A DNA stretch of 64,000 nucleotides from contig OX597817.1 of assembly GCA_951406725.2 (NCBI GenBank), positions 134,540,001 through 134,604,000 of the forward strand, given 5' to 3'. Below the pieces are notes generated by a model. It saw nothing but the letters and a program-made list of their open reading frames with translations. It searched no databases and was not told the origin of the DNA. The translations under genes were made by a program, and so were the position numbers. Below are positions 1 through 48,150 of this stretch, in pieces; position 1 is the first letter of the stretch; each line of letters starts with the position of its first letter. This DNA comes from Octopus vulgaris (lineage: Eukaryota).

Positions 1-708
1 ATATATATATATATTATTTTAACATTTAAGTTTAAATTAAAATACTCAAGAAACTATTTTTTTTCAATTTTACTGACAAAACTAATTACCTGCAAATTTA
101 CACCTTAAAAATTTAATACTACAAATTAGTGCTTCATATATTTAAAAATCACATAATATGAATTAAAGCGAAATTGACCCCTAAGTTCAAAGAAAATAGC
201 TAAAATCATTTCTACATTTTGCATTCAATTTGTTCATTAAACTTTCATTTCTTTTATAATATTCTTCTGTCTGTAAATAGAAAACGCTTTGTTATCAGAT
301 AATGCAAATTTTAAAGAAATCAATTCTTTTGTTTCTTTGAAATTTTTTGAAATTTTTTTACTCTTCTTTTTGAATTACATATATTCTACATGAGTTTAAT
401 TTTAGCACAATATCTGTGATATAAAAGTTTTGTATAATGAGTTTTGTTAAGAAAATAAAATTTAGAAAATAATATGATACTAAATAGAAGGCTAAAATAT
501 TTTACCTTAAATCAAAAATATCAAATTCAATTTTTTTAAAATTTGCAAGGAGAAGCAAACAATATAACAGACACATAATTCGATGTAAAATTTCAGAAAT
601 TTATTTCGCAAATTCTAACTTGAGCAGCAATATTTTAAGTGGAAGATGTTTATAAGCCATTTAAAAACACACAAAAACCGTTAGATTCACTTCAACATTT
701 AAATGTAA

Positions 709-755
709 TTTGTCAAAATATTTTCGTCGCTTTGAAACCGCGACCTGTTCACTGA
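709..755 (-). ncRNA. Minimal hammerhead-like motif, G3-C8 core variant
   Basis: Minus strand: TCA GTGAACA G GTCGC-ggtttcaaa-GCGAC GAAA ATAT TT TGACAAA. Confidence 0.5.
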
Positions 756-770
756 GAGGCAGCACAGAAT

Positions 771-821
771 TTTGTCAGTGAACATGTCACGGTCTCAGAG
801 TGACGAAAATATATTCACAAA
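771..821 (+). ncRNA. Minimal hammerhead-like motif, G3-C8 core variant (decayed copy)
   Basis: TTTGTCA GTGAACA T GTCAC-ggtctcaga-GTGAC GAAA ATAT AT TCACAAA. Confidence 0.45.
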
Positions 822-1247
822 TTAAATGTAAATATTGAAATGACTCTAACGATTTGTGTGTGTTTTAAATGGCTTATAAACACATTCCATGCTGCAATTG
901 TTTTTGTTTCAGCATACGACCTCAGATCAGGTCACTCTCTATGCAAGTACATCTCCGTAATATTTTAAGTTTTTTCCTCTTTACTTTTTCAGCCTTAATT
1001 ACTGCTCGTCCTACTTTTCCCGGGTCAATAATTATTCTGGCCCTCTCAGCTAGCATTTTTTATTCTAGTTAAATAATTAATAAACATATTTATGGTGAAG
1101 AGTCGAATAAGAGAGATGTAAAAGAAATCCAAGTGCAGTTTGAGCCAACTTGAGCATTATATGTAAAGCTTACGGTGTAAAAGATGAATAACAAATGTGA
1201 CTACAATATTTTAATGAAGTAATAATAGGTTTAAAAGAGAAATATTA

Positions 1248-1648
1248 TTCTTTTCTTCTCTAGGCACAAGGCTCGAAATTTTGGGGCAGGGGGCCAGTTG
1301 ATTAGATCGACACTAGAAGTGCAACTGTTACTTAATTTATCGACCTCGAAAGGATGAAAAGCAAAGTCGACCTCGGCGGAATTTGAACTCAGAACGTAAA
1401 ACGTTTCTGCTTGTTTGCCACGCTTGTAGTCATACAAATATTCTTTTCTACTCTAAGCTCAAGGCCCAAAATTTTGCGGGATGAGGCCAGTCGATTAGAT
1501 CAACCCCAGTACGCAACTGATACTTAATTTATCAACCTCAAAAGGATGAAAGGCAAAGTTGACCTCGGCGGAATTTGAACGTAACGGCAGACGAAATACT
1601 GCTAAGCATTTCACCCGGCCTGCTAACGTTTCTGCCAGCTCGCCGCCC
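1248..1648 (-). mobile_element. Two tandem copies of tRNA-derived SINE family A (Nin/Deu-like central domain)
   Basis: Reverse complement of ggcggcgagctggcagaa...gttcaaattccgccgaggtcgactttgcctttcatcctt..ggtcgataaattaagtaccag...aaatttcgggccttgtgcctagag; many similar copies across the window. Confidence 0.85.
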
Positions 1649-44020: not shown

Positions 44021-45804
44021 TTACTACATTACAGCGAAAAGTTGAATGGAGAGAAATAAATGAGTGAAGGCAGAGTTAGTGAGCACAAAACTCTGCTGCC
44101 ACTCATATATTTCTCTCCTTTCAACTTTTTTTTGAAGAAGAACCAAGTCCGAAACGTTGGACTATCTGTTCCTCACAACAGTTTCGTGTTTACTCTTCTC
44201 GTGGAATCTAGGACAAAATATAAGTCTTGCCAATGCTGATCAGCAAAATCCTCTTTAGAGATGGTTTCATCGCATAAATGCAAATATATATGGAGCACAA
44301 AAACACATTTAACACAGACAAACACACACAAACCCCATTTTGAAGATGTACGTCCGCGCGCACCAAAACAATTATGATCCATATACACACTCGAATGCAG
44401 CCATAAAAGATATACTTATGTGAGTAGACTCATAATCGCACATTCTCAACAAACACACATACACAAACGTGTGTGTGTGTGTATGTGTGTGTGTGTGTGT
44501 GTGTGTGTGTGTGTGTGTGTGTGTGTGTGTGTACGCGTGTGATTATAGAAGCAGGAAGAGAACTGTAGAGAAGTAGGACGGGGAGGAAGAGGAGGAGAAA
44601 CAAAGAACAAGAAGACAAAGACTACGACGACGACGACGAAAAGGAAGAAGAAAATGAAGAAGAAAATGAAGAAGAAGAAAAAGAAGAAGAAGAAAAAGAA
44701 GAAAGTCGTTGTGGCGGTAGCTTTGGCGGTTGTTATGTTGCTGTTGGTAGTGTTGTTGCTGTTGTGGTGGTGGTGGTTGTGGGTGGAGGTGGTGGTAGTG
44801 GTGGTGGAGGCGGTGTGGCTGGTGTTGGTGGTAATGATAGTGGTATTCAAATCGAAGAGCGATAGTATGAGGTACTGTTGTGAAGGAGTAGCGGTGATGC
44901 CATTTTATGAGGCAATTTCGTCTCGTATTTCTCCGAGATGAATCGATACTTCACTTGCAACAACAACGACAACAACAACAACAACAACGGTATTCACAGC
45001 AAATACGATAATAACAGCAGTAAGGATATTAAAAATAATGACTTCAATAATAATAATAATAATAATAATAATAATAATAATAATAATAATAATAACAACA
45101 AAAACAAAAATAACAACCACAACTGCAATAATATAAATACCAAAAATAATCCTGTCATTATTAGCCACCGGGGCCCAGAATACAGTAGAAAAAGAAACTT
45201 GTCATACAAATGAGGTTACAATTCATTAATATTCGTTTGATACATATATATGCGTGTGTGTGTGTGTGTATGTGTGTGTGTATGTCTCTCTCTCTCTCTC
45301 TCTCTCACTCTCTCTCTCTCTCTCTCTCTATATATATATATATATATATATATATATAGATAGATAGATAGATAGATAGATAGATAGATAGATAGATAGA
45401 TAGATAGATAGATAAGTCTCTGCGTATGCGTGTGTATACATACATACATGCATGCATACATACATATATACATATATTTATATATATATATATATATATA
45501 TATATATATATATATATATATATATATGAGTGTGTGTGTGTGTCTGTATGTATATCCTGTATACACAGTTGATGCAAGTATTAAATATACTGCCTCAATG
45601 TACATACACCATTGTTAGGCCAGTTACAAACTATTTGTCTTGAGATTACATTATCTTAGGGCCGTGCTGTGTTAAAAGCACAATAAATATCCGAAGGAGA
45701 CGAAAAACCCTCACTACAGTTGACCAGTAAGAATGCCAAGTGTATTTCAGCAGCAATCGACCAATCAACATTTTCTACGATATAGAGATAGCTATTGGAA
45801 TTTA

Positions 45805-45906
45805 ATAATAAATCTTTGAGCGAGGTAGAAACAGTAGCCGCACTACATCGTGAAGTATATTTGCCACCTAGGCAAAGTGTTTATACCTCGCTCAGAGATT
45901 TATTAT
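45805..45906. repeat. 29-bp inverted repeat (2 mismatches), 44-bp spacer
   Basis: ataataaatctttgagcgaggtagaaaca / tgtttatacctcgctcagagatttattat. Confidence 0.8.
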
Positions 45907-47477
45907 GGCTTCTTTCCACTTTTCGTCACTGGAAAAAGTATATATATATATCTTTGCATTGAGAACCATTTCCCATCGCCAACCGATGGGTGTCACCTAC
46001 CGATGGCGGGTTAATATCCAGAAACTTGGGTCCGTGTGTATCACGTCAGGCGGGAGATGGGAACGATGACTTCCCTTTGTTAATACTGTTAGGGCACAGA
46101 AAGTGTGTCAATAGCCAGCTGGAGGAGATGTCTTCCTGGGGCTACAAGTTACAGTAGCATCAATCCTTAAGTGCTAGCCACATTTAAGTGCCAAATATAC
46201 TTCACGATATTGTAATTTAATAATACTTCAATTGTCTATAACGGATTATCATCCAACTGGGCGGCTTTCGCAAGGTGAGTGAATGTTTTTTTTTTCTTTT
46301 TACTGTTTTCTATTTTGAAGGCAGTGAATTCTCGTCCAGGTACGTTGGGTGACTGTGAATACATCAATGAAATGGCCGAAAGAGGTTGAACTGTATTTGT
46401 CGATCTCCGTAGCTTCTCATCTGCTCTTGTCGATGTAGTAGTACATGCCCTGCTCCACAGTGTCTTGCTACATATTATCCAAGACCTCTTTCAATACATT
46501 CTATAAAGACTTGTTTATGTGAGTTCTGCTTCTTTAATAATATGAGGTGTTATCGGCTTCCTCGCACTTTCCTAGTTGAATTCAACAGGTAAGGACGCGC
46601 CATCTTGTGTGACACATCCTTATCTACTCCTCCTTTTTCTTCGTCTAGTTATTCATTTGCCCAAATGGCGAAATGGTGGTTTTCTTGGGTGGGGAGCTAA
46701 CGTTACAATTAATACGGTTCGCTTTCCAATTTAGTAAACGTTTCCAACACTAAATATTTGTATATCTTGCATTGTTTCACCGCAATTTTGGTTAATCGTT
46801 TTTTACTTCTTACGTTTAAATATACTTCTGCGGCTGATAGTTGTTGTTGTGGTTGATCATGATGATGATTATGATGATAACGCGTAGGAAGAAAATAATT
46901 TGCAAACCTGGCAAAAACGTGAATGCTCTCCTGTGCCTAAATCTATAAATTGGACACGGTCATTTCTCATGTTACTGATACCTTAGCAGTCTAGGTTTAT
47001 ACATGCTTGTATATGTGTATGCATGTACACACGCACGCACACACACACACACACACACACACACACACACACACACACACACACACACACACACACACAC
47101 ACACAAATATATATATTTACATATAATTTACCAATCCGTGATGGAAAATTTAACAAAAAAGTACTCCATCTGGTGAGAGACAAATATTGTTGCTGTGTGG
47201 TTAGAAGTTTGCTTCTCAACCACAAGGTTCTAAGTTCAGTCCCACTGCGCAGTTCTTTTGGGAAAGTGTCTTCTACTATAGCCTCCCGTTGACCAAAGCC
47301 TTGTGAGTGGATCTGACAGACGGAAACTGAAAGAATCCCGTCATAAATGCATGCTCATATGTATGTATATGATAAATAAATAAGCGAAATACAAACACAA
47401 GAAAAATAAAACAACAGTGCGAGGATGTGGTACATGCAAAGTATTAGCAGACACTCAGGGAAGGAAAGAAAGGTGGT

Positions 47478-47510
47478 TTTTACGTTTCGAGCAAAGCTCT
47501 TCTTCAGAAA
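47478..47510 (-). ncRNA. Minimal hammerhead motif with canonical core (family H2)
   Basis: Minus: TTT CTGAAGA A GAGC-ttt-GCTC GAAA CG TA AAA. Confidence 0.65.
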
Positions 47511-48080
47511 CAGGAGACAGAGGAAAGCCCAAGAGAAAAAGAAGACAGGGGCAAAAAATTCGCCAACGATTCACATGTTACATATATATTTGCGGCACCT
47601 GACAGAGTGTTTGTCCAGGATAGGACTATACAGTCACAGCAGGAGATGTATTAGGACATGACATGTAAAAGCCGGACTAGATCATTTTATGCGCAACTCC
47701 ATTGTCTCCCGAGACAAAAAGGATGCCAACAACAACAACAAATATATATATAAATATATGTCTGTGTGTGTGTGTGTGTGTGAGTGTGTGTGTGTATGTG
47801 TAGCTGACTACCCGCTTTTAGGGAGTCTATTTATAAATTATTTAGTTTTCTAATTCCTATTCATATATCCTTTTGTTGCATTCTTTAATGTTGTAGTGTC
47901 TGTCCTTGACAGTGGCAGCTCCTGTATAGGAACTGCGGAACTGCAGCGCCCCCTATTTCCACTTGATAATATCGATAACATTCAATATAACGAGTACTTT
48001 ATACTTTAATTCTTTCTTTATACTCGTACATTATATAATCCTTAAACCTAATGTCAGTAGTTTATGAAAAAAAATCCTTT

Positions 48081-48150
48081 CATTATTTACATTTGACGGA
48101 TATTTGTCCTCATCACGATGAGGACAAATACCCGTCAAATGTAAATAATG
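48081..48150. repeat. 70-bp hairpin (34-bp arms, 1 mismatch) built from the sequence that follows the 13902 hammerhead
   Basis: cattatttacatttgacggatatttgtcctcatc-ac-gatgaggacaaatacccgtcaaatgtaaataatg; compare gatgagg.caaatgtaaataatgtaaataatg at 13960-13991. Confidence 0.8.

Follow-up and report, generated by a model that had tools for sequence, protein, structure and literature searches.

Minimal hammerhead ribozymes of metazoan Penelope-like elements (PLEs), as described by Cervera and De la Peña (2014; PMC4209133), have type I topology with one nucleotide lying between position 9 and position 10.1, a palindromic stem III and a location in the pseudo-long terminal repeat (pLTR), and they occur mostly as truncated single copies or as pairs on opposite strands. 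In the in vitro model for the Anolis Poseidon element PAc (Frangieh et al. 2024; PMC11167929), both strands are nicked, reverse transcriptase (RT) starts internally and uncut RNA is the main template; there, the PLE hammerhead needs protein to cleave, is partly rescued by C3G/G8C and is dispensable for insertion. Here, we analyzed 64,000 nucleotides (nt) of Octopus vulgaris (GenBank assembly GCA_951406725.2, contig OX597817.1, positions 134,540,001 to 134,604,000; the window), which has 38% G+C, is rich in microsatellites and short repeats and lies within a 2.8-Gb genome. Its hammerhead motifs resemble those of PMC4209133 in the features named above, with the extra nucleotide in only part of the families, and they are almost certainly pLTR hammerheads of protein-coding PLEs. 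These ribozymes cleave poorly alone and can be spared in vitro, and the octopus genome supplies a series of natural mutants that bears on their role. From the sequence comparisons, we favor as the probable account that pLTR hammerheads of several coding PLE families remain as truncated, often palindromic stubs, likely from uncut RNA, and that selection on master elements likely maintains the fold, together with a 3-8 pair that may be any of the Watson-Crick forms, for a slow cleavage assisted by dimerization or by protein.

Following the repeat families of the motifs upstream (family letters A, B, D-J, L, M, S, U and U2 are labels of this analysis), we found that all six families traced, G, U, U2, A, D and B, reach an RT and/or GIY-YIG open reading frame (ORF) in the same orientation. 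Family G shows the hallmark of endonuclease-bearing (EN+) PLEs, a single ORF with RT and C-terminal GIY-YIG, remnants of which are present in the other five. Its hammerhead is separated by a repeat-rich 3' region of ~1.1 kb from a 530-amino-acid (aa) frame with RT motifs and GIY-YIG; PF01541 scores above the Pfam cut-off, and open frames extend up to 1025 aa. At a tandem pLTR-ORF junction (L399), the next ORF begins behind the G hammerhead, and the tail that ends inserted copies corresponds to ORF codons 1-31, homologous to the N-terminus of the sister family S. Tandem copies show the order ORF, 3' region, hammerhead and next ORF start, which is the pLTR-ORF organization of PLEs, and further PLE traits are tandem or inverted pLTRs, an optional 3' tail and microsatellite targets. 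The pLTR location in RT/GIY-YIG elements bears out the assignment to PLE-type minimal hammerheads made in an earlier sequence-only reading of the window.

The same reading had taken these families for short, non-coding, non-autonomous, retrozyme-like partners of PLEs, which we now consider very improbable. Although most copies are short and non-coding, and although no upstream RT/GIY-YIG ORF link was found for families E, F and 3808 in the loci examined, which also counts against our own account, every one of the traced families ends an ORF-bearing element. Moreover, the copies are inverted pairs or single stubs with microsatellite flanks, not cleavage-bounded tandem monomers, whereas retrozymes as described in PMC7229834 have canonical type I hammerheads in tandem repeats. 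Two related candidates were rejected: family G as a 200-nt non-autonomous element with terminal complementarity, since it extends >1500 nt to an ORF, and family D as a miniature inverted-repeat DNA transposon, ruled out by its asymmetric tail and RT ORF.

The families are numerous. First-look candidate counts are 1464 for G, 2221 for A, 1198 for U, 2582 for B, 1358 for U2, 88 for F and 21 for the 3808 family; family E has at least 1517 candidates, and for family D a 26-nt stretch of the core was matched exactly 1643 times, with 0 matches for the control. In family U2, the hammerhead lies after the RT-endonuclease remnant (Table 1), and in family A the Poseidon-type GIY-YIG stop is followed first by a tRNA-like segment, then by an (AAT)n spacer. 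Family B has a GIY-YIG remnant upstream, in the same orientation, in 2/25 long copies (L498, L500). The 5'-truncated ORFs of family D (L286, L290) have a CxCX5C linker, no CCHH, CxxC and CxH near the endonuclease end, and (TA)n targets. A CX2-5CxxC linker precedes the endonuclease in G, S, U, U2, B, H, I and J (degraded in U), and by this motif these families would be of the Neptune/Nematis type.

Several families come from outside the window. Family S, which is sister to G, contains numerous intact frames of 1312 aa arranged in tandem and a C3-G8 hammerhead with a G-like stem II and A9C; its stem III center is non-palindromic (L393:1600-1770(+), and L394 and L398 on the minus strand). Family J (L112:4984-5025(+), L400-L414) is very young, with U3·G8 and one unpaired U preceding the core, and family I (L344/L354-L373) combines A3-U8 with a 2-bp stem II in copies 96-99% identical, with at least 1300 candidates. 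Family H, with many 781-aa frames, has U-A, as does its relative in L340. Family L (L384, L385, downstream of the ORF) has U-A with G-C-A-A in place of G-A-A-A at positions 12-15 (A13C). Some larger hammerhead-like matches, in which stems II and III are both long and the pair is C3-G8 (L379:5230(-), L382:4206(-) and 1034(-)), were assigned to none of the families.

Across the genome, the 3-8 pair takes four Watson-Crick forms and one wobble, and these versions are fixed family-level states, not accidents of single copies. The pair is G-C in G (99/106 copies), U-A in U (29/29) and U2 (22/22), and C-G in A (90/100), D (56/59), B (22/22), E (19/21), F (9/11) and M (16/16); outside the window, it is A-U in 22/24 copies of family I, and U3·G8 with the bulged U characterizes 15/15 near-identical copies of family J. 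Deviations inside families are single changes, with no within-family compensatory swap. Family G is also present in sequencing-run contigs of four organism codes, with no change at position 3 or 8 among the 40 of 48 matches listed. To avoid choosing sites by the pair itself, we took 30 loci by a GIY-YIG profile and then inspected their downstream sequence. A clear motif was present in 17 of them (two scans), which yielded families H, I, M and L and the L340 relative; for most of the remaining loci no motif was found within the fetched flank, L341 is a host-type endonuclease exon, and the ambiguous motifs of L287 and L351 were excluded from the state count. Families J and S came from ORFs met en route, outside this sample.

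A tree of 16 protein C-termini places G and S as sisters (100/100) and groups H, I, J, L, U2, M and three single loci (98/98). Its 14 labelled rows require at least five changes of the 3-8 state, four at each position, and all states are paired. Against too confident a use of this tree, U, A and D are long branches, and the deep branches are long and unsure. Between sister families the whole pair is exchanged, C-G for G-C or U-A for A-U, and stem II remains alike in G (G-C) and S (C-G). The C-G to G-C swap is otherwise known, in the literature compared, as an engineered rescue mutant. Full swaps between sisters therefore give evolutionary support to the 3-8 pair of the active fold and to fold selection in PLEs, and the presence across families of a Watson-Crick pair of any identity suggests that the fold is likely still under selection.

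In the literature searched, natural G3-C8 or A3-U8 was not found, only engineered forms, and what that literature holds on hammerhead, Penelope and Octopus contained, in the passages compared, no data on either natural pair; Lünse et al. 2017 lay outside that search. That work reportedly lists very many PLE-linked hammerhead variants, so it and other supplements may hold G3-C8 or A3-U8. Natural G3-C8 and A3-U8 core variants are apparently undescribed so far. Tentatively, hammerheads with natural G3-C8 and A3-U8 could be recorded here for the first time, both in PLE families of >1000 copies, in a genome that has tried all four Watson-Crick versions of the 3-8 pair beside mobile A9C, U4C and U3·G8 families; PLE hammerheads may then be protein-chaperoned ribozymes with a core tolerant of changes not borne by free hammerheads, uncut until after reverse transcription, and their thousands of palindromic stubs would be a fossil map of where transcription and RT start in each element.

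The hammerhead anatomy is shared widely among the families. The core N3-U-G-A-N-N8-A ... G-A-A-A ... U-H with stems I and II is present, except for U4C in U, A9C in S and A13C in two L loci. A palindromic stem III of 4-8 nt, which could pair between two copies, is found in G, A, U, U2, B, E, F, I and M, and a 16-nt near-palindrome in D; the computed self-duplex of the palindrome is weak (G, -0.2 kcal/mol; U, +1.6 kcal/mol). An extra nucleotide between A9 and 10.1, with G10.1-C11.1, occurs in G, A, U, B, F and S, and no extra nucleotide after A9 in U2, H, I and J, while D, E and M have a 1x1 mismatch at the stem II base. In two G copies taken from the boundary to the tail, stems I and II are present in the computed minimum-energy fold.

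Variation within 10 families points to selection on this fold. Excluding CpG decay, and counting as lineage-shared those variants present in at least 15% of copies, we found them in 6/326 core, stem and palindrome columns versus 15/86 free columns (N7, loop II, N17 and inserted bases; p=4e-7). Subfamilies of D likewise differ at N7 and loop II, and those of G mostly in loop II. Other observations weigh the opposite way. The columns behind these statistics lack independence, many of the copies used were top hits, and the 3' flank, with 13/294 varying columns, does not differ significantly from the constrained set (p=0.10), so that the sequence-only reading's expectation of a core and stems conserved beyond their flanks was not borne out at significance; the flank contains the RT starts and coding sequence and thus is not a neutral control. 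Core rules are also broken at the level of successful families, by A9C, A13C, U4C, U3·G8 and the 2-bp stem II of I and J. The A9C of family S (4 copies in 3 loci) belongs to a young, copy-rich family, and A9C, A13C and U3·G8 in such families suggest weak or lapsing selection on catalysis.

These breaks bear on the possibility that the elements retain the hammerhead-like fold as a structural signal, for protein binding, RNA dimerization by the palindrome or positioning of RT starts, with cutting no longer needed. Family-level A9C, A13C, U4C and U3·G8 agree with such a role, as do the origin of inserted copies from uncut RNA (see below), the lack of effect of hammerhead mutants on insertion in vitro (PMC11167929) and the proliferation of Naiads without canonical hammerheads, as reported in PMC8557442. 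On the other side, the 3-8 pair is a known feature of the catalytically active fold (PMC3088659) and is still paired here after at least five changes, and in all 10 families counted the main state has H at N17 instead of G. We regard a purely structural role as unlikely. In our preferred account, the covariation would reflect selection on a hammerhead-like fold in master elements and not on fast self-cleavage. The sequence-only reading had drawn selection for self-cleavage from the same covariation; its part about the fold stands, whereas for fast cleavage it was overstated, in view of A9C, U3·G8 and the uncut templates.

The ends of short copies record how they were made. For families D and G, the first 30 tail matches each on contig C1 were used, not selected by score. 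In D, 16/30 5' ends fall within 6 nt upstream of C3 and 7/30 reach far upstream; none lies within 10 nt of the cleavage site. Of the G 5' ends, 13/30 fall 21-24 nt upstream of G3 and none further upstream, and none lies within 1 nt of the cleavage site. With 0/60 of these tail-anchored 5' ends at the cleavage site or 1 nt from it, inserted copies likely derive from RNA that had not been cut. This is opposed by 7/30 D copies that terminate inside the motif and by 4/30 G copies that start 2-9 nt past the cleavage site, where a uniform distribution would give ~1; the latter hint weakly at cut templates. Four G copies scored at +21 are alignment artefacts of the subfamily loop difference and stand outside the 13 boundary copies; by eye, they begin at, upstream of or within the core, not at the cleavage site.

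At the other end, G copies terminate at two sites ~60 nt apart, 86-93 nt (13/30) and 144-150 nt (16/30) after the cleavage site, both inside the start of the ORF, whose start codon is 56 nt after the cleavage site. In the G stub of the window (Table 1), the long arm reaches ~60 nt deeper into the ORF-start tail than the short arm. Head-to-head arrangement is common in family D, in which an inverted arm lies within 260 nt in 25/29 core-anchored matches, although the arms of one insertion may count twice.

TATA-like boxes are located upstream of the 5' boundary in D (-29), G (-28/-30) and A (-34). In family G, a branch-point-like and pyrimidine-AG motif 25-50 nt upstream of the core (L081-L110), a possible 3' splice site, overlaps the boundary. 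Instead of a transcription start, the sharp 5' boundary could mark an RT stall or a fold-back hot spot at stem I or a leader palindrome on read-through RNA. In D and A, inversion centers coincide with short palindromes next to the boundary, which fits this, as do the splice-site-like G boundary, the Drosophila Penelope intron that ends at helix I (PMC4209133) and the TATA-less internal promoter of that element (PMC2377424). Yet non-inverted copies with unique flanks have the same boundary, the G boundary is 14-17 nt outside stem I, and a TATA-like box stands at the expected distance in three unrelated families; we hold a stall or fold-back origin to be a serious though minority possibility.

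In the transposition mechanism that we propose, the TATA-like box would drive transcription from ~30 nt downstream. The element protein would then nick AT-rich DNA, and reverse transcription would begin at two internal sites; most cDNAs may run off at the RNA 5' end, yielding stubs of ~150-330 bp, and two cDNAs could anneal head to head through microhomology. Cleavage would be slow, dimer- or protein-assisted, and would come late or affect part of the RNA, perhaps to resolve tandem or read-through transcripts, and hence leave no footprint in inserted copies. Run-off and head-to-head joining extend the in vitro model of PMC11167929. Stub boundaries thereby predict transcription start, RT starts and cleavage timing.

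Family A alone might in addition yield a true non-autonomous short interspersed element (SINE), in which a tRNA-like RNA polymerase III promoter makes a short head-hammerhead-tail RNA that the parent element mobilizes. The tRNA-like segment (L125:1501-1575) is ~30 nt past the stop codon, in the 3' region of a coding PLE. By eye, it has A-box and B-box-like motifs at tRNA spacing; no four-T run interrupts the sense strand of the best copies, and the head has 1585 exact matches. Among 30 head-anchored copies, 24 have their 5' end within 7 nt of the head, beginning 0-7 nt upstream of it, in contrast to 4/30 ends in its first 30 nt in an upstream-anchored sample (p=7e-8). The case is countered by the head's position behind the ORF stop in the majority of 30 long copies, by the lack of a diagnostic site between 25 short and 19 long copies (best p=0.006 over ~52 columns), by the TATA-like box at -34, which accounts for the boundary as in D and G, and by ARAGORN (11 loci and the window) and Rfam (L125), neither of which calls the head a tRNA; on L125, Rfam called no hammerhead either. 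With the head found in a coding element's 3' region, a PLE-mobilized SINE was demoted to a doubtful alternative. The family A stub in the window is without this segment, and the palindrome at 48078-48153 consists of the family A tail alone, without hammerhead.

In the window itself, a strict descriptor (core, stem II of at least 3 bp, palindromic stem III, Watson-Crick 3-8, stem I of at least 3 bp, extra nucleotide after A9 allowed) found three complete minimal hammerheads, with C3 at 13907+, C3 at 47507- and G3 at 752-, versus a mean of 0.055 and a maximum of 1 in 200 local dinucleotide shuffles, and the enrichment over shuffled sequence that the sequence-only reading implied is thus real. 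Without the stem I requirement, there were 4 matches versus 0.53 per shuffle, and a descriptor lacking the extra nucleotide recovered none of the real motifs. Rfam, at E up to 5, gave only simple-repeat matches and no hammerhead family among the 150 of 217 matches listed for the window.

Eleven of the 12 sites named earlier are members of repeat families (Table 1); for the exception, 7888, a search for relatives returned the site alone (1/1 candidate), a result that does not show rarity. The C3-G8 cores proposed at 13902(+) and 47478(-) are intact, and that at 35667(+) retains its pair with a decayed stem II. Both G3-C8 cores are also real, that at 709(-) with a 5-bp stem II, a 6-nt palindrome and U17 in a motif whose 5' stem I strand is truncated by the inversion, and that at 771(+) near-intact. 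The two U3-A8 calls agree with their family states, although the motif at 8259(-) belongs to a family with C4 and in the copy at 31775(+) A6 and A13 have both changed to G. The motif at 16875(+) is C-G, as in family D, without being minimal. Among the candidates called decayed, ~3445(-) and 44132 belong to families B and F, whereas 3808 is half a motif, with the 5' half of the core ~100 nt upstream in most relatives (by eye, ~8/14 other loci). The family U copy that carries the 8259(-) motif is 1.08 kb long.

Table 1. Hammerhead motifs of the window and the elements that contain them (positions are those of the window).
Feature	Position	Strand	Remarks
Head-to-head stub, PLE family G	640-961	both	short arm 640-755(-), long arm 771-961(+)
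Minimal hammerhead, family G, G3-C8	709-755	-	intact; extra nucleotide after A9
Second family G hammerhead, G3-C8	771-821	+	near-intact; palindrome and 3' stem I strand altered
Family B hammerhead, decayed	3443-3476	-	core lost in this copy
Old hammerhead family, 3' half only (site 3808)	3805-3838	+	long stem II extension, 8-nt palindrome
5'-truncated PLE, family U	8180-9257	-	GIY-YIG remnant, 3' region, (AAT)n tract at end
Minimal hammerhead, family U, U3-A8 and C at position 4	8259-8301	-	C4 also family-wide
Stub, family A (Penelope/Poseidon type, without linker zinc finger)	13866-13994	+	
Minimal hammerhead, family A, C3-G8	13902-13947	+	intact
Young palindromic stub, family D (Hydra-type PLE)	16737-16943	both	(TA)n on either side, long arm with 60-nt tail
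Family D hammerhead arm	16869-16919	+	4-bp stem III; U·U mismatch at stem II base; not minimal
Family D hammerhead, second arm	16822-16872	-	overlooked in the sequence-only reading
Family E hammerhead, C3-G8, 8-nt palindrome	22371-22411	-	stem II decayed; inside inverted repeat 22203-22593; overlooked in the sequence-only reading
5'-truncated PLE, family U2	30102-31855	+	RT thumb and GIY-YIG remnant 30102-31114, 3' region, (TA)n at end
Family U2 hammerhead, decayed	31775-31810	+	family core U3-A8; no extra nucleotide after A9
Family B hammerhead, C3-G8	35667-35699	+	stem II decayed
Old family F hammerhead, decayed	44132-44161	+	family state C3-G8; C3 changed to T here; downstream of inverted repeat 44037-44129
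Minimal hammerhead, family B, C3-G8	47478-47510	-	intact

Other repeats accompany these elements. A palindrome at 32318-32433 has a hammerhead-like 5' core half on each arm; its relatives were not found in a search, which does not show rarity. Fold-back elements without a hammerhead core are located at 10574-10670, 20294-20466, 25153-25412, 25607-26157 and 54701-54792, and the peptide encoded by 25607-26157 resembles what we take to be a mariner transposase end. A further PLE RT-endonuclease remnant, of the H/J type (17661-18285(-)), abuts an RT fragment at 17303-17719(-) that to us looks RTE-like. The broken frames at 26590-27506(-), with Tc1/mariner-like motifs, presumably derive from a transposase, and fragments at 52139-52501(-) and ~9260-9900(-) presumably represent the restriction-like endonuclease end of a non-LTR (long terminal repeat) element. 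The window also contains a direct duplicate of 201 nt (41086-41286 and 43820-44020; 97.5% identical, 2.7 kb apart) and, at 60167-60652, 2.6 tandem copies of a SINE-like 184-nt unit that recurs many times in the window.

Compared with described systems, the core variants include two already known in nature from Perreault et al. (2011; PMC3088659), in which U3-A8 covariation and U4C occur and, in the parts compared, only U3-A8 is named as a variant at the 3-8 pair. Among the metazoan hammerheads of PMC4209133, U3-A8 is present in Schistosoma Cercyon and a U3·G8 example in Saccoglossus, and the Hydra magnipapillata example has the U·U stem II base and longer stem III of family D. G3-C8 and A3-U8 are not seen among the figure S3 representatives of that paper, whereas here each is fixed in a family of >1000 copies, and, unlike in those representatives, A9C and U4C occur here at family level. 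The animal non-LTR retrozymes of Cervera and De la Peña (2020; PMC7229834) are likewise short repeats with a type I hammerhead, but the copies described here are not tandem 170-400-nt monomers, have minimal instead of canonical hammerheads and come from coding elements. Descriptors fixed on C3-G8 overlook many hammerhead families.

Family D shares with the Hydra clade PLEs of Craig et al. (2021; PMC8557442) the CxCX5C linker, the absence of CCHH, the CxxC/CxH motifs, (TA)n targets and a hammerhead. It differs from them, as far as they are described in the parts compared, in its long repeat-rich 3' region and mostly palindromic stubs; the N-terminal motifs of that clade, RWK and DKT, were not seen in the D ORFs examined, which are 5'-truncated. 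PAc (PMC11167929) is similar to the octopus elements in its hammerhead at the pLTR-ORF junction, AT-rich targets and uncut RNA template, and its two internal RT starts set the tail inside the ORF start, as do the two 3' end sites of G. The C3G/G8C form of PAc is an engineered, partly active mutant, whereas G3-C8 here is a natural state; its start codon is inside stem II, and that of G is past the cleavage site. The fixed 5' stub boundary was not found described for PAc in the parts of that paper compared. The hammerheads of this genome are a feature of known kind, with apparently undescribed natural core variants, and the thousands of seemingly short palindromic elements around them, by-products of coding PLEs for the purposes of annotation, are a useful fossil record of PLE transposition.

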